This document shows, piece by piece, positions 462 through 37,078 of a stretch of 64,000 bases of DNA. Source of the DNA: Candidatus Buchananbacteria bacterium (GTDB taxonomy: Bacteria > Patescibacteriota > Patescibacteriia > 2-01-FULL-39-33); assembly GCA_903888345.1 (NCBI GenBank), contig CAISTG010000036.1:1988-65987 (forward strand), given 5' to 3'. Position 1 is the first letter of the stretch; every line of letters begins with the position of its first letter. The translations under genes were made by a program, and so were the position numbers. The notes beneath the pieces are model-generated. The model worked only from the letters and a program-made list of their open reading frames with translations. It searched no databases and was not told where the DNA came from.

Positions 462-2954
462 TTAAGATAAGGTTATTATACCATTTTTTGACTTCACGAG
501 TAAAGTCTTTTTGGATTTTAGTTTATTGCCGATAATAATGTCAGCTAACGCTGTTTCGACTTGGTCTCGAATGATTAGATTGATGCCTCGAGCACCTTGA
601 TTTCCCTGTCTTTGGCCTGAGTTGCTTAGGGTGGCGACAATGTGTCGGGATATTTCCGGAGCGTATTTAAGGGTAATTTGTTTTTGACGTTCGACGCGTT
701 TGGCCAGTAGTAGTAATTCCTGTTCGGTAATTTTTTCTAAGTCACTGGTACTGAGTTGTTGGTAGTAAATAATTTTGTCTAGACGATTAATGAACTCGGG
801 CTTAAAAGTCGCTTTGATTTCTTGATTTACCTTTTGCTCAATCGCGGCACTTGGCGCTCCACCAAACCCAATGTCACTTTTGCCATTCCAATACTGGCTA
901 CCAATATTGGAGGTCATGATGACAATAGTGTTTTTGAAATCAATTTTATTGCCGGCAGCGTCAGTTAAATAGCCTTCGTCTAAAATTTGTAATAGTAAGT
1001 CAAAGATTTCGGGATTGGCTTTTTCGATTTCATCAAATAATACCAAGGAATGCGGTTGATGCTTAATTTTTTCGGTTAATTGTCCACTTTCTTTGTAGCC
1101 GACATAGCCTGCCGGTGAGCCGATTAATTTAGAGACATTGAACTTTTCGCCGAACTCGGACATATCAATGCGGACTAGATTTTTTTCCGAACCAAAGAAT
1201 TCTTTAGCGAGAATTTTGGCGGTGTGAGTTTTGCCAACTCCTGATGGACCAACCAACAAAAAGGAGGCCAAAGGACGGTGGTCAGGAGTTAAGCCAGCCT
1301 TAGCACGCTTGAGGTAGTTATTGATGGTTGCCAGTGCTGTTCCTTGACCGATAATTTGGGTTTGCAGATTTTTACCGAGACGACTAATTGATTTAACTTC
1401 CGGCTTAATGAGGTCAGTAGCGGGGATTCCGGTGGCCTTAGTAATCACCTTGGCAATCTGTAAAGGAGTCACTTGTGGCAATTTCGCTTTGAGTTGCTCG
1501 TTGGTTTTGTTTTTTAGGTTAGTTGTTTTGTGGCGTAATTGTTCGAGTTGATTTTTTAGAGTAAGTGCCTCAGTAAATTTTTCTTCGGTGATTAATTGAC
1601 CCAAATTTTGATTTAGTTCCTCTAGATCCTTGACTAATTCTTTGATTTTGAGTTCATTTTTTGAAAGTGGGCGATTGACTTTTAGTCCGGCGGCAGCCTC
1701 ATCGATTAAGTCGATGGCTTTGTCGGGTAGAAATTTATCGTTAATATACTTTTGACTCAACTCGACGGCGGTATTAATTGTTGCTTCACTGATCCCAACC
1801 TGGTGAAAAGTTTCGAAATATTCTTTGATACCTAACAAGATTTTTTTGGCCTCAGTTGCTGTTGGTTCAGGAACGCGGACAGTTTGAAAACGGCGAGCTA
1901 AAGCGGGGTCATTTTCGATTGATTTGCGGTAATCACCAAAAGTTGTGGCACCAATAATCTTAATTTCACCCCGAGCTAAGGCCGGTTTGAGAATATTAGC
2001 GGCATCAAGCGAGCCAGAAGAAGATCCAGCGCCGACGATTTGATGAATTTCGTCAATAAAGAGAATAACATTTTTGCGTTCTTCAACTTCACTGATAATT
2101 TCACGAATGCGTGATTCAAATTCACCGCGAAAAGAAGTGCCCGCTACCATCGAAGCGAGATCAAGCGAGTAGATCTTTTTGTTTAGTAATAATTCCGGTA
2201 CGTCGCCCAGTGTTATTTTTTTGGCTAAGCCTTCAATGATGGCGGTCTTTCCGACACCTGGGTCACCCAATAAGAGTGGGTTATTTTTGGTGCGGCGACA
2301 AAGAATTTCGATAATGCGATTTATTTCTTGATCGCGACCAATCACTGGGTCGATATTTTTTTGAATGGTTGAATCGGTTAAATGTCGGCCAAAGTAGTTA
2401 AGGATACTATTGGTCTCGAGGTCGGAATAATCGTCAAGTTGATCGTCCGAATTCTCTTGATCTTTAAAGGCATCAATGATCTCGGGAAATTTCGTAGATG
2501 TTTTCAGGATAATCTCCGCTTGTTTGGCGAGTTCAGTAACTGCTAGGTTGTTGGTCGCCAAGATTTTATTAATAATGACGTCGTTACTATTAATTAAGGC
2601 GAAGACTAGATGTTCGGTACCGATATACTGGTGTTTGTGTTGGTAGGCGGTTTTTGCGGCCTGTTCAATTGTTTTTTTGCTGGCAGGGGAGAATTCAGCT
2701 GGCGGTTGCTGGTCACTTAAATTGATATTTTGTCCGGTTTCGATTAAGCTGGCCAAGTCTTCTTGGTTGAGTTTAAGTGTTGTTAAAAATTGTCCACCAA
2801 TGCTGCCACGCTGTTTGAGTAAAGCATAAAACAGATGTGCCGGAGTTGCCTGAAGATGACCAAAGTCTTTGGCGATTAGTAGACTATTGGTGAGGCAGTC
2901 TTTAAAGTGTTGAGAAAATTTTTTAAAAATTTGTTGTTGGTCAGTTTCGTTCAT
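462..2954 (-). CDS. clpC: ATP-dependent Clp protease ATP-binding subunit. ClpC-type class I AAA+ chaperone with two nucleotide-binding domains and a short middle domain.
   Basis: Clp N-domain repeats at the N-terminus. First Walker A is GDPGVGKT and second Walker A is GPSGVGKT, with Walker B and sensor motifs present. Length of about 830 aa fits ClpC rather than ClpB. The ORF-track start at 2960 is a TTG, and the first ATG is at 2954 (MNETDQQ). Confidence 0.85.
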
Positions 2955-3090
2955 AGACAAGATTACTTTGTTGTTTGGAGTAATTTCTGTTATAATAAAA
3001 GTATATATTACTGCTGTGGATAAGTCAATTTGTAAATTTATTTGTTAAAAATATAATTTTATTAACAATTTAGGGTTGAGGGACAAATTT

Positions 3091-6000
3091 ATGCTCTTAA
3101 AATTTAAATCCGGTAGCTTGATCACGTTAAGTCTGGTCGTTTTAGTTGTTTTTTTAATATTAATAAACGGCGCCAAAGCCTGGACGGGGCCAAATAACGA
3201 TCCACCATTAGGTAATGTGGCGGCGCCATTGAGCGTTAATTGCGGTGCCGGTGAAGATCTGTTTTTAGTTTGGGATGGTACTAAATTTGTTTGTAATAAT
3301 GTTTCAACGACCGTCAACTTGATTCAAAATTATTATCAATCGCAGAACATCAATCCATTGAGTGGTGATTTATTGCAGACTTTGGGTAATGGGTCTGATG
3401 CTAGCGCTTTTGATGATGGAGTGATTATTGGTACAACGGCTAAATCCTGGCTAAATGTTGGAGGGGCTTTAACTGCTGGCTGGTTACATGCTAATAGCTC
3501 GGTTGGTACTAGTAGTATCGCTGGAAACCTTAGTGTTGACGGAGCTACTAAGTTAAACACTGTGGCCGCTAGTAGCCTGATGATTGGCGATGCTGACGCT
3601 AATTGGCAGGGGTGGATCATGAATTTAGACGGGGCAAAAATTCCCGTTTGGCAGGGACAATCTAACTTTAATACTGACTTTCCCCGAGGAGCACTGAGTA
3701 ATGGTGCTTACATTTTGGCTAATCAAAATAGTAATTGGGCTAATTTGACTTTCGTTTCTCTTAATAATCTGGGGCAGCAATATGAGGTAGCTTATGACGG
3801 TTCCGTCAATACGCTGTATTTCAGTGGCGAAAGCTTAGTGGTGTCTGAAGGAAGTTTTGTTGCTGGCCAAGCTGAATTTCGTGATAATGTCACTTTAAGT
3901 GGTGGTACTAATGGTAAAATTCAACAATTAAATCTTGGTGGTGGCGGGGAGTATCTTTATTCTGATCGTGATGTAAACAGCTCAAATAAATGGTCAATTA
4001 ATTTAGCTACTGCTGGTGTTGATCGTTTAACGATTAATGAGGGGGGTAATGTTGGTATCGGCACTAATCTACCAACGGCTAGATTAGAGGTGGCTGGTCA
4101 AATAAAAATCACTGGTGGTAATCCTGGCGCCAATAAAGTTCTTACTTCAGATGCTGATGGTTTAGCGTCGTGGAAAGAATGGTTGGTGGGTCAAGGTGGT
4201 AATTTAACACTGGGCACCTCAACCTTGCTTGATGTCTTAAAGAGTGGTGCTGACGCTTCGGCGTTTAGTCAGGCAGTCAACATCGGAGATGTTAGCCATC
4301 CAGCCAATTTTTATGTTAATGGTGGAGAAATTAAGGCGAAATACTTACATGCGACCGATGCGATTGGTGTTAGCAGTTTTGCTGGTAAGGTTGGCGTCGG
4401 CACCATTAATCCTAATAACACTATTGAAGTGGTGGATTTAATTAATTTTGATAATACCAACAGAAATACCAAATTAGGTTATCAAGCAGGGAAGAATATG
4501 ATTGCGGTAGGCGAAAACAATACAATGGTCGGCTATCAAGCGGGCTATTCGAGCGTTTCTGGCTTGAGCAGTTTAGCCAAAAATAATACCGTTATTGGTT
4601 ATCAGGCGTTGTATTCCAATACCACTGGCTATGATAATGCGGCCACTGGCTATCAAGCACTTTATTTAAATACGGATGGTTTCTTCGATACGGCCACCGG
4701 TTATCAGGCTTTGTATTCTAATGTTCATGGAACCTACAATACTGGCGTCGGTAATCAGGCTCTATACTCCAATCGTTACAGTCATTATAATACCGCCTTG
4801 GGAAATCAAGCACTTTATACGACAACTGGTGAGAGAAATGTGGCAATAGGTTATAGTGCCGGTAAATACGAAACTGGCGGTAATAGTTTTTATGTTGATG
4901 ATCGTGATCGCAGTAATACGTCCGGTGATAAGGCCGGTGCTTTGCTCTATGGTACCTTTGCTGATGATGCAGCGAGCCAGGCTTTGGTTGTTAATGCGAA
5001 ATTAACCGTTAACGGAACTATTAAAATTATTGATGGCAATCAAGGTAGTAATAAAGTCTTGACTTCTGATGCTAATGGTCTAGCTTCCTGGCAGAATCCG
5101 GCGACGATTACTTATGCCACCCCGACTTTAGCGCAAATTTTAGCTAAAGGGGCTGACGCGAGCAGTGTTACCTCAACTGTTTCCTTGGGTGGAAATTTAA
5201 GCACCAAAGGTGTGGCAGCTACTGGTGTTGTAGTGACTGGTGGACTGACCACAACCGGCAATATCGGTGTGGGTACCGCCAATCCAGCTTATAATTTAGA
5301 CGTTAATGGTAATCTAAATGTTGCTGCTGGTAAGGCCTATAAGTATAATGGTGCCAATGTTATTTTGGCGGATACCGCTAAGGTTAATTATTTTTTTGCT
5401 GGAGCGGGTAATGCGACCATGACTGGTACTGGCAATCTTGGTAGTGGCGGCAATGCGCTTTTTAGTAATACTGATGGAACCAATAATACAGCCTATGGTT
5501 TAAGCACTTTAGTGGCAAATTCCTCTGGCGCTGATAATACCGCCATTGGCAAGTTAGCCTTATATAACAATCTTGATGGAAATGATAATACCGCCATTGG
5601 TTCGTCAGCGTTGTCTGCTAATACGAGCGGCAAGGAAAATACGGCTTTGGGTAGTGACACTTTAGTTGCGAACACTTCCGGCAGTTACAATATTGCTCTT
5701 GGTTCGCTGGCACTGCAATTTTATACAGGAAATTATAATATCGCTATCGGCTATAAAGCGGCAATTCAGGCCGATGGTTTAACTAATGCCATCGCTATTG
5801 GTAAGAATGCTCGCGTTGATACTTCAAACTCGATGGTTTTAGGTGGTATTGGCAATGACAAAGTTAATGTCGGCATTGGTGTTACTAATCCTACCCAACG
5901 GTTAGTTGTGGACGGAGCGATTAAGTTAGTTGCTACTAGTACCGCTACTGACTCGCAAGGCAATAAGTATTGTAGCGCTGCTAAAGCCGGTTCGATTGTT

Positions 6001-6108
6001 TATGAAGATGTTGATCCGGGATCAGTAGGAACGGCCGCCCATTTTTGGGGTTGTACGCGAACCGGGACGAATACCTATCAATGGGTTAGGTTAGATTTTG
6101 TCAATTAA
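3091..6108 (+). CDS. Giant secreted or surface repeat protein, about 1005 aa, and a candidate pilus-associated adhesin. The N-terminus MLLKFKSG-SLITLSLVVLVVFLIL resembles a class III (prepilin-like) signal but lacks Glu5. The body carries beta-strand repeats of the form xVGIGTxxP...KVLTSDAxGLASW (tail-fibre-like) and many NTAxGxQALYSNTxG repeats resembling Hep_Hag/YadA heads.
   Basis: Short basic leader ending in Gly, followed by a roughly 20-residue hydrophobic segment that closely resembles the minor pilin at 18127 (KGQSLIELIVAVAV). Internal repeats are visible in the ORF translation. The gene sits directly upstream of pilM. The ORF-track start at 3076 is a TTG, and the first ATG is at 3091. 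Confidence 0.55.
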   Translation: MLLKFKSGSLITLSLVVLVVFLILINGAKAWTGPNNDPPLGNVAAPLSVNCGAGEDLFLVWDGTKFVCNNVSTTVNLIQNYYQSQNINPLSGDLLQTLGNGSDASAFDDGVIIGTTAKSWLNVGGALTAGWLHANSSVGTSSIAGNLSVDGATKLNTVAASSLMIGDADANWQGWIMNLDGAKIPVWQGQSNFNTDFPRGALSNGAYILANQNSNWANLTFVSLNNLGQQYEVAYDGSVNTLYFSGESLVVSEGSFVAGQAEFRDNVTLSGGTNGKIQQLNLGGGGEYLYSDRDVNSSNKWSINLATAGVDRLTINEGGNVGIGTNLPTARLEVAGQIKITGGNPGANKVLTSDADGLASWKEWLVGQGGNLTLGTSTLLDVLKSGADASAFSQAVNIGDVSHPANFYVNGGEIKAKYLHATDAIGVSSFAGKVGVGTINPNNTIEVVDLINFDNTNRNTKLGYQAGKNMIAVGENNTMVGYQAGYSSVSGLSSLAKNNTVIGYQALYSNTTGYDNAATGYQALYLNTDGFFDTATGYQALYSNVHGTYNTGVGNQALYSNRYSHYNTALGNQALYTTTGERNVAIGYSAGKYETGGNSFYVDDRDRSNTSGDKAGALLYGTFADDAASQALVVNAKLTVNGTIKIIDGNQGSNKVLTSDANGLASWQNPATITYATPTLAQILAKGADASSVTSTVSLGGNLSTKGVAATGVVVTGGLTTTGNIGVGTANPAYNLDVNGNLNVAAGKAYKYNGANVILADTAKVNYFFAGAGNATMTGTGNLGSGGNALFSNTDGTNNTAYGLSTLVANSSGADNTAIGKLALYNNLDGNDNTAIGSSALSANTSGKENTALGSDTLVANTSGSYNIALGSLALQFYTGNYNIAIGYKAAIQADGLTNAIAIGKNARVDTSNSMVLGGIGNDKVNVGIGVTNPTQRLVVDGAIKLVATSTATDSQGNKYCSAAKAGSIVYEDVDPGSVGTAAHFWGCTRTGTNTYQWVRLDFVN

Positions 6109-6113
6109 TAAAA

Positions 6114-7841
6114 ATGCGAAATAAATTTTTTAAAATTTCTTACGCCTTAACGATAATCGCTTTATTGCTGGTTGTCGGTGGTTTGGCAATTAATTTTTAT
6201 CAGGCTCAAGCTGAGGATGTAACTTATAGCTTGGGTGGTTGGATGTGGAGTGATAATTACGGTTGGGTATCTTTAAATAGTAGTAATAGTGGTTTGGTTA
6301 ATTATACTGGGAAGAGTTATCGAGTTGATGTTGCTAGCAATAATCAGTTATCTGGTTGGGGTTGGTCGTCAAATATCGGTTGGGTGTGTTTTGGCTTGAC
6401 TTGTGATCAAGAAAATATCTGTAACGGCCAAGAAACTTGTAATCCTAGTGATTTTGGGACGGCAGCGCCGCCAACTGGCGCCTGGCAAGCAACCATTACT
6501 GATGGCAAACTTGATGGCTGGGCGAAGATTTTGTCACTTAAGGATGAAGGCCTGTTGCATTTAGGCATCGCCGCGAGCAATTATTCTGGTCAAGCCGGAA
6601 TTGATTGTTATGATTGTACCTATAATACCTCAACTACTCCTTTACCAACTGGTGGCTGTCGTACTTGTTTTACCGACACGAAGTATAATAATGAAAACCT
6701 TCCTAATCAAGCAGTAGAATCAGTGGTTGGTGGTAGCGGTAAGATTTGCTCGGCTTGCACTGATTGTAATTTGAGTGGCATTGATAGTAAAATCGCTTGC
6801 CAAACTTGTCAAAGTTGCAAAGCTTATGGCGGCGTTGTTGATGGTTCTAATGGCGCTGTCCTGGGTTGGGGCTGGAATGGCAATCAGGCACCTAATAGTG
6901 AGGTTGGTGCTGGTTGGGTACAGTTTAATCCACTTAACGGAGAATCTGGCATTGTCTATCCTTGGCTACAAACGGTTTATGGAACGGTTTTTAGTCAGAA
7001 TTCGATCAGACAAAAGGCGGCCCTTAAAATGACTAACGCCACCTATTGTATTTTGGCTCAGGGTATTTATAATTTCAAATCCGGCAGTAATTGTAGCGCT
7101 AATGTTAACTTGCAATTTCCGACCTCGACTAGCAATGGCGATGTCGCCTACAAGAACGCTTTAGGGCGCTTGGATGTGGTCGGTTTAACTTTTGAAGTCA
7201 GAAAAACCAAAGATATTAGTTATAATAAGTATGGCAATAAAATTATTACCTTACCTGGTGGCACGGTGGTCGCGACTCCGGTATTGTTAGATAATTCAGT
7301 TTATGTTTATAACGGCGATCTCACTGTTAATTCTGGCTTTTCAATTTTAAATGGCACCAAAGAAAATGAGCGCGGCAACGGTGTTATTATTGTTAATGGT
7401 GATTTACATTTAGCAGCTGACTTTGATTATGAAGCAGATAATTTCGATAATAGTAATTTAAAAAAGCTAGCTTCAGTGGCCTGGATCGTTAAGGGCGACG
7501 TGATCGTTGATCCGGCAGTTAGTAAGGTAGTGGGTGCTTTTGTTGTCTTGGGTGATGGGAGTCCTTGCCTGGAGTCTAGTGGTGCTGCTTGTTCGACTAA
7601 CAATAACTATCCAATTTATCGAGAAAACGGCTATGGCTTATTTGTTTCTGGTAATTCTGCTAATCCTTTGGTTGTTTCCGGCTTAATTGTGGCGAAAGCT
7701 TTTTCTTTTCAGCGCACTTATGCCGATATCAATCAGGGTGCAGAAAAAATCATTTATGACGGACGGCTTATCGCTAATCCGCCGCCCGGTTTAACTGGTT
7801 TTACTGAAAGTTTACCAATTATTAGAGATTTTGAATTTTAA
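6114..7841 (+). CDS. Secreted, membrane-anchored Cys-rich protein of 575 aa with three GWxWSxNxGWVxF repeats. Function unknown, possibly a pilus or surface co-factor.
   Basis: N-terminal MRNKFFK leader plus a transmembrane helix, similar to the preceding gene's leader. Repeats read GGWMWSDNYGWVSLN, SGWGWSSNIGWVCFG and LGWGWNGNQ...GWVQFN. More than 20 cysteines lie in CxxC-like clusters. Confidence 0.5.
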   Translation: MRNKFFKISYALTIIALLLVVGGLAINFYQAQAEDVTYSLGGWMWSDNYGWVSLNSSNSGLVNYTGKSYRVDVASNNQLSGWGWSSNIGWVCFGLTCDQENICNGQETCNPSDFGTAAPPTGAWQATITDGKLDGWAKILSLKDEGLLHLGIAASNYSGQAGIDCYDCTYNTSTTPLPTGGCRTCFTDTKYNNENLPNQAVESVVGGSGKICSACTDCNLSGIDSKIACQTCQSCKAYGGVVDGSNGAVLGWGWNGNQAPNSEVGAGWVQFNPLNGESGIVYPWLQTVYGTVFSQNSIRQKAALKMTNATYCILAQGIYNFKSGSNCSANVNLQFPTSTSNGDVAYKNALGRLDVVGLTFEVRKTKDISYNKYGNKIITLPGGTVVATPVLLDNSVYVYNGDLTVNSGFSILNGTKENERGNGVIIVNGDLHLAADFDYEADNFDNSNLKKLASVAWIVKGDVIVDPAVSKVVGAFVVLGDGSPCLESSGAACSTNNNYPIYRENGYGLFVSGNSANPLVVSGLIVAKAFSFQRTYADINQGAEKIIYDGRLIANPPPGLTGFTESLPIIRDFEF

Positions 7842-7855
7842 TATTTATATATTTT

Positions 7856-8977
7856 ATGTTTGGCTCAAACAATTATAGTTATCTGGGAATTGACCTCGGA
7901 TCATCATCAATCAAAGTTGTCGAGTTAATGAACGTCAAAGGACGTCCACGCTTAATGACTTATGGTTTTACTGAAAAGAATATATCAAATATTGGCGATA
8001 CCGGATTAATTAGTGACGTTAATGAAGCTGCCTTGATTTTGCAAGATATTCTCAAAAAATCAAAAACAACCTCGACTAAAGTGGTGGCTGCTTTGCCAAA
8101 TTATTCAGTTTTTACTTCAATCTTAACTTTGCCCGCCTTAAATAAGAAAGAACTCGCGGCCGCTATCAGCTGGGAGGCCAAAAAAATTATTCCTTTGCCG
8201 TTAGAAGAAATAATTTTAGATTGGAAGATTATTGAAGAATTCGAAACTGGGGGAGCGCGGGGGCAGGATTCGCCATTGCTTGATAAAAGCGTAATGCAGG
8301 ACACTAACCCCTTAAAAAAGATTTTTTCTAAGCCACAAAAAAGCGTTAAAATTCTGTTGACGGGAGCGAGCAAAAGCTTGATCAAAAAGTATGTTGATAT
8401 TTTTGCTAAAGCCAATTTAAATTTATTGAGTTTGGAAACTGAAAGTTTTGCTTTGATTCGCTCATTATTGGGCTCAGATAAATCAACTATTATGTTGATT
8501 GATATGGGTGCTTCGACTTCAAGCGTGACGATTGTTAAGGGTGGGATTCCGGTCTTAACGCGATCATTGGAGTTGGGCGGGCAATCAATCACCAAGGCAG
8601 TTTCTTCGGCTTTGAATGTCACCATGGAAAGAGCCGAACAGTTCAAGCAGGATTTAGCGTTAGACGCAGAAACCTCGGAGAATTCATTGCCGAAAACCGT
8701 CGAGCAGTCATTTGCTCCTATTCTTAATGAAATCAAGTATACTTTTAATTTATATAATGAGGGCAATACGGCCAAAATTGAAAAAATTGTTTTGACTGGT
8801 GGCACGGCTTTAATGGGGCATTTGACTGGTTATTTAGCTAATTACTTTAATATTAATGTCTATATTGGTGATCCCTTTAGCCGGGTAATCTTTCCGACTG
8901 ATTTGAAGCCGGTTCTGGATCGAGTTGGCGCCCGTTTCGCTGTTTCTGTCGGTTTAGCGATGCGTGAAATCGAATAA
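7856..8977 (+). CDS. pilM: Type IV pilus assembly protein PilM, an actin-like ATPase.
   Basis: N-terminus LGIDLGSSSIKVVEL is the canonical PilM/FtsA-like phosphate-1 motif. Length 373 aa. It sits immediately upstream of the pilN-like gene. Confidence 0.85.
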   Translation: MFGSNNYSYLGIDLGSSSIKVVELMNVKGRPRLMTYGFTEKNISNIGDTGLISDVNEAALILQDILKKSKTTSTKVVAALPNYSVFTSILTLPALNKKELAAAISWEAKKIIPLPLEEIILDWKIIEEFETGGARGQDSPLLDKSVMQDTNPLKKIFSKPQKSVKILLTGASKSLIKKYVDIFAKANLNLLSLETESFALIRSLLGSDKSTIMLIDMGASTSSVTIVKGGIPVLTRSLELGGQSITKAVSSALNVTMERAEQFKQDLALDAETSENSLPKTVEQSFAPILNEIKYTFNLYNEGNTAKIEKIVLTGGTALMGHLTGYLANYFNINVYIGDPFSRVIFPTDLKPVLDRVGARFAVSVGLAMREIE

Positions 8978-8981
8978 TTTT

Positions 8982-10376
8982 ATGGATCCAAATTTACTGC
9001 CGCAAGGTTTGCGCGACAAAGAAGAGCAGGAATTAAAGAGGCAGCAAAGGCAGCCTCGTGGTTTTAAAATTGAATTAAATGAACCGACAGATAAGAAAAG
9101 TGCCGCCGCCGTAACCAAATCTGATCGGTCCGGAGCTAGTTGGTGGCAAAATATCTTGGGGATCGCCCCAGTTCCTGTTCTTGGCGATCAGAGCTTAACT
9201 AATCCAACAATTGATAAGACTAGTGTTAGCGACTTGGATTGGCTGACCAATAGTCATCAGAAGAAAGCACCGAAGCATCATCCAAAAACCAGCGCAAAGG
9301 TTACTAGACATAAACGAACTAAAGTAAAAAAACCGGCAAAGACTGGTTGGGTGGGACGACTTTTGGGTCAGCCACTGTCGCCAATCTTACCGATTGCTGC
9401 GGTTAATGATGATAGCTTCGAATCACTAGCCAAAACAGCTCCAGTGCCAGAAACTATTAAGGTCGCAGCTATGGCGGACCAGTCATCGACCATTAAGCCG
9501 GAGCCGAAATCTCAGCCACAGCGTACAGTATTAATTGAAACAAAACGGCCTCAACCTTCAGCTAGTGTCTCGGTTGGTTGGTGGTCAATTATTAAGGGTT
9601 TATTTGGCTGGTCTCACGTCGTTAAGCCTGATTTACAGTTTGCTATCACTAAAACTATTCCAGCACCTTCAGTGCCCGCCGCTAAGCCGACGGCGCACGC
9701 AACTAAGTCGCACTCGGGGCAAGAGACTAAAAAGCCTACTGAAGCAGTGAAATCGACAGTGAAGCCAATATATAATTTGGTGCCGAAACGCGAGCGTGGT
9801 GCCATTAATGTCAATTTGATGCCGCAAGAGCTCAAAGCGGATAGCAAATTATTAGTTACGCTGAAGTTTAATTGGTGGCTGTTTGCTATCATTTTACCGT
9901 TAGTTTTAGTAACTGGCGCGGCTGTAACTTTGCATTATTTGTCGCAAAACCTAGTTACCAGACTGAGTGCTAATGAACGCCAATTAACTGAACTAAATCA
10001 ACAAATTGGTGATTTTGTAATTGAAGAGCAAGCTAATAACCATACGGCACAAAAAATAACGATAGTTAAACGATTAATGGATAACAAAATTGTTTGGAAT
10101 AAGTTTTTTGCTTTGCTGGAAAAATATACTTTGGATGGCGTTTACTTCGATAGTTTAGTCGCCGATACTTCGGGAGAATTAGTGTTGCCGGGAGTTGCCG
10201 AAAATTACACTGTTTTGGCGCAGCAGATCGCTGTTTTTCGTGATGCTAGTGATTTCGTTAAAGAAGTTAAGATTTCTAGCGCGCAGCTGTACTCTGATGT
10301 CAAGGCCGGAGTGCTGGGCACTAGCTTCCAGGTGCGCTTAACGTTACAAGACAACATTTTTAAGCAAGCTAAATAA
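8982..10376 (+). CDS. pilN: PilN-like inner-membrane pilus alignment protein with an unusual N-terminal disordered extension of about 275 aa rich in K, P and T. It carries two INLLP-type PilM-binding motifs. Residues about 280-464 form a canonical PilN (motif, transmembrane helix, coiled coil, periplasmic domain).
   Basis: MDPNLLPQGLR lies at the extreme N-terminus (ATG 8982; the ORF-track start 8964 is a GTG overlapping the pilM stop). The second motif AINVNLMPQELK at about 9801-9836 is followed by the transmembrane helix WWLFAIILPLVLVTGAAVTL and a coiled coil. Confidence 0.7.
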   Translation: MDPNLLPQGLRDKEEQELKRQQRQPRGFKIELNEPTDKKSAAAVTKSDRSGASWWQNILGIAPVPVLGDQSLTNPTIDKTSVSDLDWLTNSHQKKAPKHHPKTSAKVTRHKRTKVKKPAKTGWVGRLLGQPLSPILPIAAVNDDSFESLAKTAPVPETIKVAAMADQSSTIKPEPKSQPQRTVLIETKRPQPSASVSVGWWSIIKGLFGWSHVVKPDLQFAITKTIPAPSVPAAKPTAHATKSHSGQETKKPTEAVKSTVKPIYNLVPKRERGAINVNLMPQELKADSKLLVTLKFNWWLFAIILPLVLVTGAAVTLHYLSQNLVTRLSANERQLTELNQQIGDFVIEEQANNHTAQKITIVKRLMDNKIVWNKFFALLEKYTLDGVYFDSLVADTSGELVLPGVAENYTVLAQQIAVFRDASDFVKEVKISSAQLYSDVKAGVLGTSFQVRLTLQDNIFKQAK

Positions 10377-13128: not shown

Positions 13129-13509
13129 ATGCCAAAAAACAAACAGATTAATATCTTAATTGTGGAGGACGATGTATTTTTAGCGGATTTGTATAAAACC
13201 AAGTTTACTTTGGAAGGATTTAAAGTAATTACCGCCTATGATGGTGAAAAGGGCTTGGAAGCTGCCAAGAAAAATTTGCCGGATATTGTACTATTGGACT
13301 TGGTCTTACCAAAACTCAGTGGTTTCGATGTTCTCAAAGGCATTAAGGCTGATCCGGCTACCAAGAATATTCCGGTAATTTTGTTGACTAATTTGAGCCA
13401 AAAGTCTGATGTAGAAACCGGCATCAAATTAGGGGCGAATGACTATTTGATCAAGGCGCATTTTATGCCATCAGAAGTGGTTGAAAAAATAAAAAAACTT
13501 ATCAATTAA
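13129..13509 (+). CDS. Stand-alone response-regulator receiver domain, CheY/PilH-like, 126 aa.
   Basis: ILIVEDD acidic pocket. Phospho-acceptor Asp sits in LLDLVLP. A conserved Lys sits in YLIKAHF. There is no output domain. The gene lies between pilB and the pilT-like gene. Confidence 0.8.
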   Translation: MPKNKQINILIVEDDVFLADLYKTKFTLEGFKVITAYDGEKGLEAAKKNLPDIVLLDLVLPKLSGFDVLKGIKADPATKNIPVILLTNLSQKSDVETGIKLGANDYLIKAHFMPSEVVEKIKKLIN

Positions 13510-22260: not shown

Positions 22261-22623
22261 ATGAAGCGATCTAATGGATTTACTTTGATAGAGGTGGCAA
22301 TAGTTGTGACGATAATTTGCATTATGGCAGCGCTACTTATTCCTAGTCTTTCTGGTCAGAGGGACGAGTATTTGAAACGTCAATCCATGGTCATTGACTT
22401 ATTTAATGATCAGGAGGTGAAAGTGGAAAGTTGGATGTTTTATTGGGTAGTTGATGATATTGCCAGTGCGTGGTGCGTAAATCACAGTATTCCGGTTGAT
22501 CAGCGCCAAGCCAAGACTAAAGAGCTGATTGATAGATTCAAGTATTCGGTCAATAACGCCAAGATTAAGCTCTTGCCGCTACCGACAGAAAATAACACCA
22601 TCGCTGCAGGCAATTCGCAATAA
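22261..22623 (+). CDS. Small type IV pilin-like protein of 120 aa, with its own promoter, Shine-Dalgarno site and terminator.
   Basis: MKRSNG|FTLIEVAIVVTIICIMAALLIP prepilin motif. A strong Shine-Dalgarno site precedes it, unusual in this genome. A perfect terminator follows. Confidence 0.7.
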   Translation: MKRSNGFTLIEVAIVVTIICIMAALLIPSLSGQRDEYLKRQSMVIDLFNDQEVKVESWMFYWVVDDIASAWCVNHSIPVDQRQAKTKELIDRFKYSVNNAKIKLLPLPTENNTIAAGNSQ

Positions 22624-32510: not shown

Positions 32511-32783
32511 TTATAGCGGCGGCGATTTTTCTTTCCGTTCACTTTTGGGAATGCCGCGGCGTACGCACCAACACTCTGCTTCATAATGAAAACCTTTATC
32601 AATGAAGACGTGATGCACCAGGGCAAAGCTAACCGGTTCTCCGGCAAACATTTTATCCAAAACAGAAGCAATTTTAGCGCGCCTGTTTTTGTCTGCTCTA
32701 TACGCCAAGTAGGCTGAAATAATCATGACTGGCATTATGAAGGCCATAATTAGCAATGCGTTAAGGGTCCATTCAGGTAACAT
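32511..32783 (-). CDS. Small membrane protein of 90 aa (cassette b1, second gene).
   Basis: AAAGGAGAG lies 7-8 nt upstream of the internal ATG at 32783. Transmembrane helix LNALLIMAFIMPVMIISAYLAY. The longer ORF-track extension to 32867 lacks a Shine-Dalgarno site and overlaps the upstream small gene. Confidence 0.5.
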   Translation of the reverse strand: MLPEWTLNALLIMAFIMPVMIISAYLAYRADKNRRAKIASVLDKMFAGEPVSFALVHHVFIDKGFHYEAECWCVRRGIPKSERKEKSPPL

Positions 32784-32806
32784 AGAGACTCTCCTTTGTT
32801 TGTCGT

Positions 32807-32983
32807 TTAGTGTACGGGAACAGTGCTGGCCGCTGCTAGCACAATGAATGTCATCCATAGAGCCCAATATCCGAAATAGCCGATTATCACACGAACACTA
32901 ACTGGAGACTTTCCTAGTCTCCTGGCCATAAATATAAATCCGATAGAAAGGGCAATTGTCATGAGTACGAAGAACAAATACAT
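32807..32983 (-). CDS. Tiny two-transmembrane-helix protein of 58 aa (cassette b1, first gene). It falls below the ORF-track size cut-off.
   Basis: AAAGGAGAT 7 nt upstream of the ATG. Translation is MYLFFVLMTIALSIGFIFMARRLGKSPVSVRVIIGYFGYWALWMTFIVLAAASTVPVH. A TTGACT-N17/18-TAnnnT promoter lies about 40-90 nt upstream. Confidence 0.45.
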   Translation of the reverse strand: MYLFFVLMTIALSIGFIFMARRLGKSPVSVRVIIGYFGYWALWMTFIVLAAASTVPVH

Positions 32984-33082
32984 GTTGCAATCTCCTTTAT
33001 TTGTTTTCGTTAGCTTATATTATTGAGTGGTGGATTTACCAGTCAACTACTAAGAATATCATGATTATTAGTAAAAGTCAAG

Positions 33083-33130
33083 TAAATAAAAATCGTCCAG
33101 CTCCAGTTTTGGTAAACTGAGGCTGGACGG
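33083..33130 (-). terminator. Minus-strand terminator for the secreted/membrane/zinc-ribbon operon (approximate coordinates).
   Basis: Perfect 8-bp stem cgtccagc / gctggacg with a T-run on the minus strand. Confidence 0.5.
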
Positions 33131-33153
33131 GAAAGAACTGATTGCTGAGGGTG

Positions 33154-33408
33154 TCAGCTTCGTAAGTAGGCGATAAACGCGCGCCACATGATTCTGAATG
33201 GGTTGCGCTGGCGACGAGCCTCACGTGCTTTCGTCTGTGTTTCTTGGTCAGTGGCCAGTCCGCAGTTGATGCAGAACATCATGCTGGGCCAAAGTTCATT
33301 GCCGCATGCGCATTTGGGCAGTGGCACTACCTTGTTGCCGCACATTTGGCAGTATTTACCGATTATTGCCGTGTTGCGGCAGTTGGAATTTGAACAAATG
33401 CTGGGCAT
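33154..33408 (-). CDS. Double zinc-ribbon small protein of 84 aa (cassette b2, third gene).
   Basis: CSNSNC..CQMCG and CACG..CINCG (four CxxC pairs), then a basic amphipathic C-terminus. AAAGGAGA Shine-Dalgarno site 8 nt upstream. Confidence 0.6.
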   Translation of the reverse strand: MPSICSNSNCRNTAIIGKYCQMCGNKVVPLPKCACGNELWPSMMFCINCGLATDQETQTKAREARRQRNPFRIMWRAFIAYLRS

Positions 33409-33410
33409 CT

Positions 33411-33872
33411 TTATTCTCCTTTAATCGCGTTCAGCGCTTGGTTAGAACTCGGACAGGTGGGACACTTGTCTCCGGCGAGTTCAAGCGGCTGCCAACCCTT
33501 GGTCAGCAGGGTGGGAATCTTGAAGTACACCGGTTCGTTGGTTTGTTTTGTTGCTTCGGGCAACAGATTGGACCTGACCGTGGCCGTTGAGCCGTCGAAG
33601 GTGACGCTGATTTTTCCCTTGTCGGGAAACTTCAGATCTTCTTTGTTCACAAACACCTTGAAGAGGCTGCTCTGGATCTCTGGGATGGCGGTTGGTGTGG
33701 TGGCAGTGACCGGCGGGTCTACTGCCATCAGGGCATTAATCATGAAAAAGATAAAACAGACAAAAGTAGCGATTGACCAAATGATCCGTTGTGGCTGTCT
33801 GTTCTTCTCGTCAATACATAGGATTAGCCACAACAGATTGACTACGGTCAAGATGATAAAATATATATGCAT
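33411..33872 (-). CDS. Membrane-anchored hypothetical protein of 153 aa (cassette b2, second gene).
   Basis: Two N-terminal transmembrane helices. C-terminal CPTCP motif. GGAGGAGA Shine-Dalgarno site 7 nt upstream. Confidence 0.55.
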   Translation of the reverse strand: MHIYFIILTVVNLLWLILCIDEKNRQPQRIIWSIATFVCFIFFMINALMAVDPPVTATTPTAIPEIQSSLFKVFVNKEDLKFPDKGKISVTFDGSTATVRSNLLPEATKQTNEPVYFKIPTLLTKGWQPLELAGDKCPTCPSSNQALNAIKGE

Positions 33873-33905
33873 GGCGGGATCTCCTCCATCGCGTTCAGCG
33901 ATTGG

Positions 33906-34382
33906 TTAGGACTTTTTGGTCTTGCTGAAGTATGACATATTCAGCACCTTTTTGTCGGCAGTGACTAGAATGACAAAGCATTGGAAGCCGTCTTCGGTGT
34001 CGCGAGACAGGATGAAGCCGGCATCAAGTTTGCCCATGGTTCCTTTAAGCGTCCAGGTCTTGGTGTTGAGTTGTGCGCCCTCGATGTTTTGAATGGTGAC
34101 CGTGATTGTTGTTTCGTCGAGATGTGGCTCCGACAAACCCATTGATGTTTTGATACTGTTGGTGGCGTGGACAATGTCGAGTTGGCCATCACCGTCGTAG
34201 TCAAACATGTTGATGGTATTGTTGGGGACAATCTCGCAGGTGGAGCGATTGAGGCCCACGGTCTGGTGCGGGAAGATCGCCAGCGACTTTTCTTGCGTCG
34301 TTGTGCTCACTTCCTGGGCATGAGCGGCGACTGCCGTCAGCAGAATTGCGAACAGTACGACAACGAAGATAAGGTTTTTCAT
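33906..34382 (-). CDS. Secreted hypothetical protein of 158 aa with a DYDGDGQLD calcium-binding-like loop (cassette b2, first gene).
   Basis: Signal peptide MKNLIFVVVLFAILLTAVAAHA|QE. A DxDxDG loop. Shine-Dalgarno site GGAGAAAAGGA upstream. Confidence 0.6.
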   Translation of the reverse strand: MKNLIFVVVLFAILLTAVAAHAQEVSTTTQEKSLAIFPHQTVGLNRSTCEIVPNNTINMFDYDGDGQLDIVHATNSIKTSMGLSEPHLDETTITVTIQNIEGAQLNTKTWTLKGTMGKLDAGFILSRDTEDGFQCFVILVTADKKVLNMSYFSKTKKS

Positions 34383-34457
34383 GTTTCGATCCTTTTCTCC
34401 GCATAAATGCGGTAGTTGTGAAGGTCCGGTTGATAGCTAACTTTAGCCAATCAATTA

Positions 34458-34490
34458 ATAATTATAGCATACATAGCAAAATTTGTCAAG
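34458..34490 (-). promoter_or_regulatory. Consensus sigma70 promoter TTGACA-N17-TATAAT on the minus strand (copy A of the duplicated ~80-bp module), driving the b2 operon (approximate coordinates).
   Basis: Minus-strand read is ttgacaaattttgctatgtatgctataat. The surrounding ~80 bp is about 90% identical to the 35880-35960 region. Confidence 0.55.
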
Positions 34491-34705
34491 TAGTTATCAA
34501 CAGGTAAAATAAATTTTGTTTAAATTTAGATATAATAATATTAATATTTCGGCGTAATTGAAGTGATTTTCATATTTCACGATTGTACTCCTTATTGTCA
34601 TTGCGAGGGATGCGAACTCAGCCGACCACGGTAATCTCAGTTATCTTGTGACAACTAGCCGGTAAGAGCTTGTTTCGGACGTTCTGCTGAACTACCTCGT
34701 AATGA

Positions 34706-34768
34706 CGAAAATTATAAAAATTAAACAAAAAAGAAGCGCCCCGCGTAGACCGAAGTCCCGCGGGGCGA
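34706..34768 (-). terminator. Minus-strand terminator after the 34787..35083 gene (approximate coordinates).
   Basis: Perfect 9-bp GC stem cgccccgcg / cgcggggcg followed on the minus strand by a long T-rich run. Confidence 0.55.
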
Positions 34769-34786
34769 TATTTGTGCTTTGTTGTG

Positions 34787-35083
34787 TCAGCTGGCCTGCT
34801 CGTAGCGGTCCAGCGTGGCGGCAACGTCGTTTACGGATATGCAGAGTGGCACCTGACGTAGACGGCCTCGGTGCATTCCGAATAGGCCGTTGATTTGTTT
34901 CGTGAATCGTGCCAGATCGACGTTCTCATCTTCGAGGATATCCTGGAGGATGGCGAGCCAATTCACGTGGTTGTATGCCTGACCGTAGTGGCAGGACAGA
35001 CACAGCGAATCACGCGCTCCGCCCTCATTCAACCCCATTGTCTTTCTCAAAGACGTCAGAACGCGTTCTTTTAGTGTGAGCAT
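34787..35083 (-). CDS. Hypothetical protein of 98 aa (cassette c, second gene).
   Basis: GAAGGAAAGGA Shine-Dalgarno site upstream. No homology recognised. It overlaps the spurious ORF-track entries on the opposite strand. Confidence 0.5.
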   Translation of the reverse strand: MLTLKERVLTSLRKTMGLNEGGARDSLCLSCHYGQAYNHVNWLAILQDILEDENVDLARFTKQINGLFGMHRGRLRQVPLCISVNDVAATLDRYEQAS

Positions 35084-35112
35084 GATCAGTAGTCCTTTCC
35101 TTCTCTGGGAGT

Positions 35113-35742
35113 TCAGCCGGCCTTTTTGCTGGGAGTGACGATCAGGTCAAAGCGACCGTCGCCCTTCAGATATTCCTTGATGTCGCGGTCGAAGACTTGG
35201 CAGTAAGCGATGGCATCAGCCATGCGGTTGTCACGGATCAATCCGCAGATCACATCCCTGAGCGTCTTCTGTTGCTGGCGACGCTCCTGTTCCAACTCGG
35301 AGTTGGTGGCCTGTTCTTTCTGCTTCAACTTTTTGGTTGCCTGCTTCAGTTTAACCAGGCCTTTGCTGAGTTTTGCTTCCAGCTCTGCCGAGGTGACTGG
35401 CTCCAGTTCTTCGATCTGACTCTCGAAATCTCCCTGGCTGATGTCGGAGAAGAATCTGAAATCAAGCCCGGAGTAATAGTGGGGCGGCTCAACTCCCACC
35501 CAGTTTACTGGAGAGTTAATCAAACCGCTGGCAAGTAGGGCGTTAACTGATCTGGTGATTTGTTGGCGCTCTACGGTCGACAGGTCACTCGGACGCTCCC
35601 TGGTGCCGCTAATCCTGGGATTCTCGCCAAAACCGTTTTTGAATTGAACGCTGGCGACAAATCCTTTCTGATCAGCGACGATGATGACCGGGATACGGAT
35701 GCCATGGAACTCAGTTACTCGGAAAATCTCGAATTTCTTCAT
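35113..35742 (-). CDS. Hypothetical protein of 209 aa with a central coiled coil (cassette c, first gene).
   Basis: AAGGAA Shine-Dalgarno site. Charged coiled-coil segment EELEPVTSAELEAKLSKGLVKLKQATKKLKQKEQ. A consensus promoter lies about 150 nt upstream. Confidence 0.55.
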   Translation of the reverse strand: MKKFEIFRVTEFHGIRIPVIIVADQKGFVASVQFKNGFGENPRISGTRERPSDLSTVERQQITRSVNALLASGLINSPVNWVGVEPPHYYSGLDFRFFSDISQGDFESQIEELEPVTSAELEAKLSKGLVKLKQATKKLKQKEQATNSELEQERRQQQKTLRDVICGLIRDNRMADAIAYCQVFDRDIKEYLKGDGRFDLIVTPSKKAG

Positions 35743-35886
35743 GATTGAAATTCCTTTCCCACTTCGTGGGTTTTCTTGGTTGTGATTGTTTGCTTTACTA
35801 AAATTCCCTTATTTTAAGGCAATGAAATAGATAACTACTGCATCGCCCTAGAATCAGGGAACTTAGTTTGTTAAAGTTCTAATATA

Positions 35887-35919
35887 TAATTATAGCATAC
35901 ATAGTAAAATTTGTCAAGT
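35887..35919 (-). promoter_or_regulatory. Consensus sigma70 promoter TTGACA-N17-TATAAT on the minus strand (copy B of the duplicated module), driving cassette c (approximate coordinates).
   Basis: Minus-strand read is ttgacaaattttactatgtatgctataat. Confidence 0.55.
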
Positions 35920-35957
35920 AGTTATCAACAGGCTAAAATTATTTTTGTTTAAATTTA

Positions 35958-35991
35958 AATAAAAAAACCACTCAGGTTTAATGTGAGTGGC
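35958..35991 (-). terminator. Minus-strand terminator ending cassette d (approximate coordinates).
   Basis: Stem ccactca / tgagtgg, then a run of 7 T on the minus strand. Confidence 0.5.
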
Positions 35992-36014
35992 TAAATTGGT
36001 GTTCAAGATTGATT

Positions 36015-36446
36015 CTAACGCCAAGGATCAAAGTCTAAACGAATATCGCGGATTTTATTAATATTTTCCATGGTAATTATCGTGTTTTGAGCGGTTTGAT
36101 CATAAAATTCCTTGGTCAGATAGATCGTCCAGGGCCTAGGGTTGCCGGGCTTGGAGCCATCAAGGAAATTAAAGTCTGACCCCATGGCTTTGAGCATCGC
36201 GCAGACGTAATTCGGGAAAAATCCGGTTTGGAAGGTTTCTACCGTTGTTGAATCAGATATTCCCCAAATTTGGTGTCGTTCAAAGCCCTCGAAAGTCACG
36301 CTGACTGGAATAGTCAATTTTTTTGACTGATAGATTAGCCAGATTAAGGTTTTTCTAAATATTTCTGGGTACTCCGAAGTATTGGCAATCAAATATTGGA
36401 GTGCTGAGATTTGTGTATCTGTGATCACGGGAGTTGGCTTTTCCAT
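36015..36446 (-). CDS. Hypothetical protein of 143 aa, paralog of the upstream gene (cassette d).
   Basis: Shares Q(I)xAL.Y(I)..., WLI.QS..LT.PV.V and INxIR..LDFD blocks with the 36453..37001 product. Confidence 0.55.
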   Translation of the reverse strand: MEKPTPVITDTQISALQYLIANTSEYPEIFRKTLIWLIYQSKKLTIPVSVTFEGFERHQIWGISDSTTVETFQTGFFPNYVCAMLKAMGSDFNFLDGSKPGNPRPWTIYLTKEFYDQTAQNTIITMENINKIRDIRLDFDPWR

Positions 36447-36452
36447 GTGTTG

Positions 36453-37001
36453 TTACACCTTTGGTTGTTTGCGTTTCTTAACCCAAGAAACACTTTCTTT
36501 GGGTTCAGGGAGATCGTGAGAACCGCCAAAATAGCTGGCATCCGCTAACCGGATAGCATTTATTTTCTCGAGATCAAGTCTCAGGCGCGTCGCTTTATCA
36601 TCATAGAGATGGGGCGAGAGCCAGGCCGTGTAGCCGTGGAAGTTATTAAGTTCTCCCTGCTCATCGTATATTCCGCCATGAACCGAAAATCGGAAAGTCG
36701 TGCTAGCTACAGTCAGCAAGGAGTTAAGGTGGGTGGTGTTACCACCGCTGATCATGTCATGAATACTGTTAAGCAGTTGTTCGCACAACTCTATCTGGCC
36801 CTTGGGTGTGCCGGGGCAATTTTTCGGAATACTGACACAGACTGGCCGCGTTAGGTTATTCGACTGATCAATTAGCCAGAAACAAAGTCGCTTGCCGAAA
36901 TTGCTGGCATCTTTTGATCCAGCGATGTAAATTTTCAGCGCCTCAATTTGTCGGTCAGATAGGGGTCTTGATTTAGCGAGTCGGGTCGTGGATGGGGCCA
37001 T
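36453..37001 (-). CDS. Hypothetical protein of 182 aa, tandem paralog (cassette d, first gene).
   Basis: Internal ATG at 37001 has a CAGGAGAA Shine-Dalgarno site 7 nt upstream. The ORF-track start at 37076 lies inside the promoter -35 element and is unlikely. Confidence 0.55.
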   Translation of the reverse strand: MAPSTTRLAKSRPLSDRQIEALKIYIAGSKDASNFGKRLCFWLIDQSNNLTRPVCVSIPKNCPGTPKGQIELCEQLLNSIHDMISGGNTTHLNSLLTVASTTFRFSVHGGIYDEQGELNNFHGYTAWLSPHLYDDKATRLRLDLEKINAIRLADASYFGGSHDLPEPKESVSWVKKRKQPKV

Positions 37002-37045
37002 GATACGGTTCTCCTGTTGGTTGATTTTAAAGGTGCGTCGATAGG

Positions 37046-37078
37046 TGAGTCTAACATAACGAATAGGGGTTGTCAATG
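37046..37078 (-). promoter_or_regulatory. Sigma70-like promoter TTGACA-N17-TAGACT on the minus strand, driving cassette d (approximate coordinates).
   Basis: Minus-strand read is ttgacaacccctattcgttatgttagact. It overlaps the divergent holB upstream region. Confidence 0.45.

Follow-up and report, generated by a model that had tools for sequence, protein, structure and literature searches.

What are the two large secreted proteins whose genes stand at the head of the type IV pilus locus in a 64,000-nucleotide stretch of DNA (hereafter the window) from a Candidatus Buchananbacteria bacterium (GenBank assembly GCA_903888345.1, contig CAISTG010000036.1, positions 1,988 to 65,987)? An initial annotation, made from the letters of the DNA alone, had placed two such proteins there, and the open reading frames (ORFs) in question, here called P1 and P2, were confirmed (Table 1). 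They had been proposed to be giant pilins processed by the prepilin peptidase PilD, or else tip adhesins. The analysis presented here indicates that both proteins are probably exported by the general secretory (Sec) pathway, that P1 is akin to phage tail fibres and to a group of bacterial adhesive fibres, and that P2 is tied to pilM across deeply diverged genomes. Together, they may form a two-part attachment device.

Both leaders are organized as Sec signal peptides. P1 begins with MLLKFKSG-SLITLSLVVLVVFLILI-NGAKA/WTGP and P2 with MRNKFFK-ISYALTIIALLLVVGGLAI-NFYQAQA/EDV, where the slash marks the predicted cut (AKA/W31 and AQA/E34, respectively); each shows the succession of n-, h- and c-regions and small residues at positions -3 and -1. 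The type of signal peptide was judged by a rule-based (-3,-1) test together with comparison among relatives. Among 71 non-identical proteins with a P1-type N-terminus, a (-3,-1) site lies 0-3 residues before a conserved Trp in 69, and exactly before it in 49; in 58 of 61 P2 homologues, a -3/-1 site is found where the h-region ends.

The leader of P1 had been read as that of a prepilin with Thr in place of Glu5, and Gly8 does indeed follow a short basic leader and precede a hydrophobic stretch. However, a true minor pilin of the same locus, MMRAKG/QSLIE, has Gly at -1 and Glu at +5, whereas P1 (MLLKFKSG-SLITL) would have Leu at +5 and Thr at +4 if cut after Gly8, and Ser at -1 and Gly at +1 if SLIT is laid over SLIE. 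Because the Gly-1 and Glu5 registers conflict, P1 cannot have both hallmark positions of a prepilin in any register. A Gly at the start of the hydrophobic region is present in only three of the 71 P1-type relatives, and G....E in the leader of two, while the AXA/W site is conserved; no class III-like motif was found in 72 P2 homologues from genomes or in 134 further cluster representatives (206 in total). The pilin N-terminal (N_methyl) models PF07963 and TIGR02532 score above their curated thresholds for four of the five pilins of the window (E 1e-6 to 1e-10), and the fifth gives a weak PF07963 match; neither model matches P1 or P2 at E <= 0.1. An MRNKF-like start of P1 would require TTG 3076, which overlaps the Shine-Dalgarno sequence, and the orthologues begin at a Met equivalent to ATG 3091 (MLVKQP or MLLKQP). 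The idea of giant pilins, cut by PilD and polymerized into the pilus, was rejected, since the class III features considered were lacking or not conserved while a signal peptidase I site fits better and is what the relatives have kept; we find it barely credible. As far as can be read from their leaders, P1 and P2 are predicted to be Sec-exported, signal peptidase I-type proteins, and neither pilins nor PilD substrates.

The body of P1 points in another direction. The tail-fibre-like and NTA.G repeats, from which an adhesin-like architecture had been deduced, proved to be real: the motif NKVLTSDAxGLASW occurs twice (residues 348 and 654), collar motifs of the form G[IV]G[TV] occur four times (residues 322, 435, 726 and 928), and 17-residue repeats of the form NTAxGxxALxxNTxG make up two blocks (residues 463-598 and 780-890). 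While P1 has no Pfam match at E <= 0.1 and no NCBIfam match, it matches tail spike and virion structural families of PHROG at E ~1e-32 (PHROG 4636, 23837 and 6002), and in a tblastn search its repeat blocks matched 84 phage records at 34-40% identity, in features annotated as tail fibre, tail spike or tail structural protein and including cyanophage, pelagiphage and roseophage fibres. Among PDB sequences it matches Bd2133 of Bdellovibrio (8OND, E 3e-6) and 8OJN (E 1e-3), the alignment falling on the GNVGIGT..P.A.LEV.G collars. The database homologues of P1 (n = 591) are mosaics from Bacteroidota, Ignavibacteria, Elusimicrobia, Gracilibacteria and Patescibacteria, frequently with an S74 chaperone or a type IX secretion system (T9SS) sorting domain, and many are named 'tail fiber domain-containing protein'; the fibre body of P1 is common to Bacteroidota T9SS proteins and phages. 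The Peptidase_S74 domain (PF13884), present in relatives such as P0154, is absent from P1 in the Pfam scan, and the P1-type tip domain with its single Cys pair recurs in P0075, in P0179 and in Bacteroidota fibres. A Foldseek search with the AlphaFold2 (AF2) model of P1 returned nothing significant, tailspikes leading the list at E > 0.2.

This architecture recalls the mosaic adhesive trimer (MAT) fibres of Bdellovibrio bacteriovorus, which have variable tips and come either with or without an S74 domain (Caulton et al., 2024; PMC10769870). P1 resembles the S74-less (NS74) subgroup (Bd2133, Bd1334) in its signal peptide, its mosaic body, the lack of S74, the similarity of collars and beta-helix to 8OND and 8OJN, the small beta-rich tip with one Cys pair, and the conserved N-terminal end, proposed as an anchor. 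It differs from them in belonging to Patescibacteria, in being encoded inside a type IV pilus operon beside a conserved partner gene, and in being so far a presumed trimer. With phage tail fibres and spikes it shares the 17-residue repeat blocks and the combination of a conserved attachment end with a variable receptor end; unlike them, it bears a Sec signal peptide, lacks further phage genes in its vicinity, and has an N-terminal module not found in IMG/VR. On these similarities, P1 can be assigned to the tail-fibre/MAT kind as a putative new member of the NS74 type. A trimeric autotransporter of the YadA kind was rejected, P1 having neither an anchor domain nor a Hep_Hag match in the Pfam scan (a few P1 homologues bear precomputed PF05658 matches). 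A prophage remnant was also rejected: neither the P2 family nor the N-terminal module of P1 has a relative among the 2.9 million viral contigs of IMG/VR, phage genes are absent from the vicinity, and the genes keep a conserved place within the pilus operon.

The part of P1 that recurs most strictly is its mature N-terminus. P1-type proteins have in common a signal peptide, the sequence A/W-x-[EG]-P-x3-PP-x-[GN]-N-[VI]-A-[AP]-P-[LI]-N, and a Cys pair. In related genomes, large genes (~750-1350 aa) fill the interval from clpB to P2, and most of their length cannot be aligned with P1, the collar motifs and the first ~100 residues excepted; identities at these loci are 38-48% for P2, 56-79% for PilM and 57-70% for PilB. 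When metagenome contigs were scanned with the module alone, 50 loci were retrieved, in which it heads proteins of 50 to 1026 mature residues that include fibres, a Kelch-like propeller and small Cys-rich domains. Homologues remote from pilus genes, which the initial annotation had named as evidence against a processed pilin, do occur: at many of these loci, the nearest pilus gene, if any, is more than 10 kb away. MAT fibres likewise possess an invariable N-terminal domain, which 'would presumably tightly bind' an unidentified surface element (PMC10769870), and by analogy with this proposal, and with phage and adenovirus fibres, the conserved module of P1 may be the end by which the fibre attaches. 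In some genomes (L014, L018, L020, L022 and L024), two or three large secreted genes with other N-terminal types lie between clpB and P2; among these types are a Cys-rich 'CP..G...C......CGG.C' start, to which P0075 with its P1-like tip domain belongs, and an 'AVGYSV...YYG' start.

P2 is tightly linked to the pilus operon. P2-like genes were collected from 79 GTDB genomes with P2 peptides alone, and 75 of these loci extend downstream of the gene. In all 75, pilM comes next, after a median gap of 86 nt, and the remainder of the operon follows it, although P2 identity falls to 25% and the neighbour upstream of P2 varies by clade (clpB, a recJ-like gene, others). Upstream of P2, at a distance of up to 9 kb, a gene bearing the P1-type module is present at 16 of the 18 closest-clade loci and at 29 of 55 overall. 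The part of the initial interpretation that concerned a protein similar to PilY1/PilC gains support for P2, as a non-pilin accessory of the pilus, from the synteny with pilM. Many GTDB records containing the operon (L001, L003, L009, L012 and others) are third party annotation (TPA) assemblies titled 'uncultured Gammaproteobacteria bacterium'; these titles look like placeholders and are unfit for taxonomy.

P2 itself is Cys-rich with three GW repeats, as had been noticed: it contains 18 Cys (3.1%), and the third of its GWxW...GW repeats is interrupted. The CxxC-rich hairpin insert is absent from distant homologues. The protein has no sequence match in Pfam, NCBIfam, PHROG or PDB, and its profile compared with PDB sequences gave chance-level matches only. 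A word-index search found about 70 homologues, all hypothetical proteins of Patescibacteria, and in an exhaustive profile search the number of cluster representatives rose from 535 at E <= 1e-30 to 3003 at E <= 1e-10 and to 6974 at E <= 1e-3; throughout the family, the conserved region is C-terminal, behind variable N-terminal parts. The AF2 model (predicted local distance difference test, pLDDT, 86; predicted template modelling score 0.82) consists of a signal helix, a beta-hairpin domain and, at the C-terminus, a beta-solenoid, and contains neither a propeller nor a pilin fold. The top PDB match in Foldseek is ComZ, a competence pilin of the pilus tip (6QVI), and it is weak (E 1.2e-3, probability 0.57, template modelling (TM) score 0.17-0.19); ice-binding-type solenoids come next, with target-length-normalized TM scores of 0.35-0.40 and no close fold among them. 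No meaningful match was found among the viral structures of BFVD, and kinship of P2 to the PilX-like minor pilin of the locus or to P1 was rejected, as hhalign found nothing. Some relatives are much longer than P2: locus L043 (5897-11560) has an ORF of 1887 aa that ends in a P2-like region directly before pilM, and distant relatives of 1300-1470 aa occur in L063, L064, L066, L069, L078 and L079, being preceded by separate GW-repeat proteins in L069, L078 and L079. From these long variants, it follows that the N-terminal half of the family is highly plastic.

Comparison with known pilus-associated proteins gives partial likenesses only. Like PilY1/PilC, P2 is a large non-pilin with a signal peptidase I-type signal and a genetic link to type IV pili, and its locus encodes PilV-, PilW- and PilX-like minor pilins but lacks PilY1; this absence, already noted in the initial annotation, holds for the locus proteins scanned with Pfam and NCBIfam, none of which has a PilY1/PilC-type domain. 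Unlike PilY1/PilC, P2 has no beta-propeller and no PilY1/PilC match in Pfam, and it is encoded before pilM rather than after pilX. A recent preprint proposed that a solenoid inserted in cyanobacterial PilX and in ComZ acts as a tip plug replacing PilY1 (bioRxiv 10.64898/2026.02.12.705559). P2 resembles cyanobacterial PilX and the Thermus thermophilus ComZ (6QVI) in its link to pili in organisms without PilY1 and, by a weak structural match, may share with them a large beta-solenoid of the ice-binding type; their solenoid, however, is inserted in a true pilin with a class III signal, whereas P2 has a Sec signal and no pilin fold. The resemblance to tip-plug solenoids is thus a lead and not a membership. 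In the Saccharibacteria strain TM7x, PilX1 and PilX2 have enlarged C-terminal domains and no predicted PilD signal, and binding to the host requires PilX2 (Grossman et al., 2025; PMC12206443). P2 is, like these, a protein of a Patescibacteria pilus locus without a PilD signal; unlike P2, PilX1 and PilX2 have a pilin-like lollipop N-terminus and jelly-roll or beta-propeller domains, and no sequence relation between them and P2 was seen. None of the P2 loci found belongs to Saccharibacteria. Tapirins of Caldicellulosiruptor, a bacterium without an outer membrane, are non-pilin beta-helix adhesins encoded at a type IV pilus locus. Homology of P2 to them was not detectable, and the tapirin model of NCBIfam gave a sub-threshold match to the PilX-like minor pilin and not to P2. 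P2 would work most like PilY1/PilC or the Saccharibacteria PilX2, but it fails their defining structural features and fits no described family among those compared.

A further link between the two proteins emerged from the surroundings of the module. Among the module-selected loci of at least 4 kb, 13 of 31 contain an ORF with GW repeats that has the orientation of the module gene and lies no more than ~3 kb from it. In total, 16 GW-repeat ORFs were counted in 483 kb of module-selected DNA, compared with none in 645 kb of control Patescibacteria DNA (the remainder of the window plus the GTDB loci from pilM onward); with an even spread, the chance that all 16 would fall in the module-selected DNA is ~1e-6, or ~4e-5 if the count is reduced to 12 by merging near-duplicate loci. 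Of the 16, only five represent P2 before pilM; the others encode GW proteins that lack the P2 solenoid and are either shorter or longer. The pair of module and GW genes was found at three positions of pilus operons, namely before pilM, between pilC and pilD (L085) and just after pilD (L090), and, in L121, among housekeeping genes and away from pilus genes. Because pairs also occur away from pilus genes, the pair can work without an adjacent pilus operon; it behaves like a single unit, frequently inserted in pilus operons but not in every case. In L085 (3595-15696), a compact pilus operon runs from pilM-N-O-B-T-C to pilD, and the slot from pilC to pilD is occupied by a GW-repeat protein of 526 aa and two proteins with the W-x-E-P module, one of 466 aa and one of 508 aa that also has Kelch-like repeats; a canonical pilin motif was not found anywhere in this 20-kb locus.

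These observations can be arranged into a model in which P1 and P2 form a two-part attachment device, with P2 as a pilus-linked non-pilin adaptor and P1 as an exchangeable fibre, and to which we give an about even chance of being correct. Both proteins would be exported by Sec and then cut by signal peptidase I. P1 would form a trimeric, tail-fibre-like adhesin whose variable body and tip bind a host or a surface, while its conserved mature N-terminus would serve as the end of attachment. The C-terminal beta-solenoid would link P2 to the type IV pilus machine in a non-pilin role similar to that of PilY1/PilC, possibly as a tip 'plug', and the GW beta-hairpin domain would hold P1, or another fibre exchanged for it, by the N-terminal module. 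Extension of the pilus would then display the fibre, and PilT-driven retraction would draw the cell onto its host. What the comparisons show directly is the type of signal peptide, the fibre homology of P1, the synteny of P2 with pilM and the proximity of module and GW genes; from these we infer the binding of P1 to P2, the trimerization, the location on the pilus and the function as an adhesin.

Several observations weigh against this model. It gives no account of how P2 would be retained on the cell or the pilus after its release by signal peptidase I; P2 lacks a pilin fold, and its gene heads the operon, whereas that of PilY1 accompanies the minor pilins; a fibre gene next to P2 is missing in distant clades; and there are pairs of module and GW genes with no pilus gene within 10 kb. 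The likeness of P2 to ComZ and ice-binding proteins is weak (TM 0.17-0.40), and profile searches of P2 retrieved no known family beyond a sub-threshold match of DUF7305 to the solenoid in 4 of 43 family members. The AF2 monomer of P1 is poor (pLDDT 54) and confident in the two 17-residue repeat blocks only, although this would be expected of an obligate trimer. A wider generalization can be offered more tentatively still, and we regard it as possible but on balance doubtful: a modular 'fibre-on-pilus' mode of host recognition in Patescibacteria, in which cleavage by signal peptidase I would lay bare a short N-terminal tag (W-x-E-P-x3-PP-x-G-N-V-A-A-P-L-N), the tag would dock swappable payloads (tail-fibre-like adhesins, Kelch propellers or small Cys-rich domains) on GW-repeat receptors, and P2 would couple this platform to the pilus through a detached solenoid plug similar to that of ComZ/PilX. 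If true, it would hint at the type of partner that anchors MAT-type fibres in predatory bacteria.

The strongest rival explanation is that P1 and P2 are surface adhesins independent of the pilus and merely co-regulated with it, the GW domain anchoring P2 to the cell's own wall or S-layer and the fibres being held through P2 or in parallel to it. Trp-rich hairpin repeats do resemble wall-binding repeat designs; yet P2 and 43 members of its family have no match to the Listeria-type GW or choline-binding repeat families of Pfam. The pairs of module and GW genes that lie among housekeeping genes, more than 10 kb from any pilus gene (L091, L098, L109 and L121), speak for such independence, as do the MAT fibres of Bdellovibrio, which sit on the cell surface and are not known to be anchored by a pilus (PMC10769870). 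On the other hand, pilM adjoins P2 in all of the deeply diverged loci in spite of a changing upstream flank, the module/GW pair is embedded at three different positions of pilus operons, and pilus genes are present in 8 of the 31 module-selected loci of at least 4 kb, where a few percent would be expected by our own estimate (a ~15-kb operon in a ~1-Mb genome). Taken together, this makes independence from the pilus rather unlikely.

It is also conceivable that the machine resembles a type II secretion system and that P1 and P2 are its cargo, exported by Sec and pushed through the envelope by the pilus or a pseudopilus. Type II secretion substrates carry signal peptides of the signal peptidase I type, as both proteins do, and the slot of L085 with its two module proteins and one GW protein, in a locus where no canonical pilin was seen in 20 kb, would suit a secretion device; but the operon of the window has a full retractile set, with a major pilin, four minor pilins and PilT, it lacks a secretin, and an outer membrane to be crossed is not known from Patescibacteria. 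We therefore hold this explanation to be improbable. Still less probable appears a role of P2 as a fibre assembly chaperone, a counterpart of phage tail-fibre assembly proteins that would replace the missing S74 chaperone. The order of the genes, with P2 starting 5 nt after the fibre gene, and the lack in P1 of an S74 domain that some relatives have would agree with it; P2, however, is large, secreted and multi-domain, it is kept directly before pilM in clades that have no adjoining fibre gene, and, like the module, it is missing from the viral contigs searched.

Table 1. Features of the P1-P2 locus and its surroundings (positions in the window).
Feature	Position	Strand	Description
clpB-like gene	462-2960	-	divergent from P1
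Promoter-like site	3030..3057	+	TTGTAA-16-TATAAT; 10/12 matches; consensus match only
Shine-Dalgarno sequence	3078..3082	+	GAGGG, 8 nt before P1 ATG 3091
P1	3091..6108	+	1005 aa; putative secreted mosaic fibre protein, tail-fibre/MAT-like, without S74 domain
P1 Sec signal peptide	3091..3180	+	n-region MLLKFKSG, h-region residues 9-25, c-region NGAKA; predicted cut after Ala30
P1 mature N-terminal module	3181..3240	+	WTGPNNDPPLGNVAAPLSVN; consensus W-x-[EG]-P-x3-PP-x-G-N-V-A-A-P-L-N; followed by Cys51/Cys68 pair
P1 fibre collar 1	4045..4173	+	GNVGIGTNLPTARLEVAGQIKITGGNPGANKVLTSDADGLASW; aligns to beta-helix segments of Bd2133 (8OND) and Bd3182 (8OJN)
P1 repeat block 1	4477..4884	+	eight 17-residue repeats (NTAxGYQALYSNTxG); AF2 pLDDT 70-94
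P1 fibre collar 2	4978..5091	+	ends in NKVLTSDANGLASW
P1 repeat block 2	5428..5760	+	~6.5 17-residue repeats
P1 last collar and C-terminal tip domain	5863..6108	+	VNVGIGVTNPTQRLVVDG; small domain, Cys961/Cys988 pair, no S74 chaperone
P2	6114..7841	+	575 aa; putative secreted protein from a family of Patescibacteria that lacks annotation; conserved genes of the pilM-pilN-pilO-pilB operon begin with it
P2 Sec signal peptide	6114..6212	+	predicted cut AQA/ED after Ala33
P2 N-terminal domain	6219..6983	+	GWxWSxNxGW(I/V) beta-hairpin repeats at residues 42, 81 and 251; inserted CxxC-rich long hairpins, residues 160-236
P2 C-terminal beta-solenoid	7146..7793	+	most conserved part of the family; ends in near-invariant YDGRLIANPPPGL (7755-7793)
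Type IV pilus genes after P2	7856..20145	+	pilM, pilN-like, pilO, 107-aa ORF, pilB, response regulator, pilT, pilC, major pilin, 146-aa ORF, pilD, four minor pilins

The window is a segment of Patescibacteria (candidate phyla radiation) DNA with ~40% G+C and with genes nearly all on the + strand, and its nearest relatives bear the label Candidatus Buchananbacteria. A divergent intergenic region of 130 nt separates the clpB-like gene from P1 (Table 1). P1 and P2 are co-directional and 5 nt apart, P2 is followed by pilM after 14 nt, and a scan of the sequence found no terminator-like site between P1, P2 and pilM. The four minor pilins that end the pilus operon are GspH/FimU-, PilV-, PilW- and PilX-like, and ligA comes next. 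The gene in the pilN position (8964-10376) is unusually long, encoding 470 aa with a Lys/Pro/Ser-rich N-terminal extension of ~300 aa, and has no match in Pfam or NCBIfam. Between pilB and pilT, a receiver-only response regulator (13129-13509) occupies the same position in the closer related genomes and, with 67-82% identity, ranks among the best-conserved genes of the operon. Outside the main operon, an orphan pilin-like gene (MKRSNGFTLIEVAIV...) lies directly past ligA (22261-22623). Further downstream, a block of minus-strand ORFs (32511-37076) stands out in the mostly + strand window by its G+C of 0.44-0.47 (compared with ~0.40); none of these ORFs looks at sight like the adjoining housekeeping genes, and the block may be an inserted island.

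Patescibacteria in cultivation live fixed to the cells of a host, an attachment that requires type IV pili (PMC12206443, PMC10633639). Outside Saccharibacteria, host recognition in the group is largely unexplained, and the locus described here offers two candidate components, namely an unannotated protein family that invariably opens the pilus operon in many lineages of Patescibacteria, and a phage-like fibre that is rapidly shuffled but keeps a putative docking end. Within the limited range of literature that could be searched, we found no account that combines a MAT-like fibre gene in a pilus operon, an invariant secreted protein encoded before pilM and a recurrent pair of tag and GW repeats, and nothing on the P1 or P2 families in the literature on DUF7305 or on tail fibres in Patescibacteria. 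The authors of the MAT study had themselves remarked that an interplay of the fibres with type IV pili may be of interest (PMC10769870).

Should the partnership of P1 and P2 prove false, the recognition of both as Sec-secreted proteins rather than giant pilins would still be a correction. If it is true, organisms with tiny genomes could vary their host range by swapping fibre bodies behind a constant tag, and the GW-repeat proteins would be a candidate class of anchors for MAT-type fibres such as those of Bdellovibrio.

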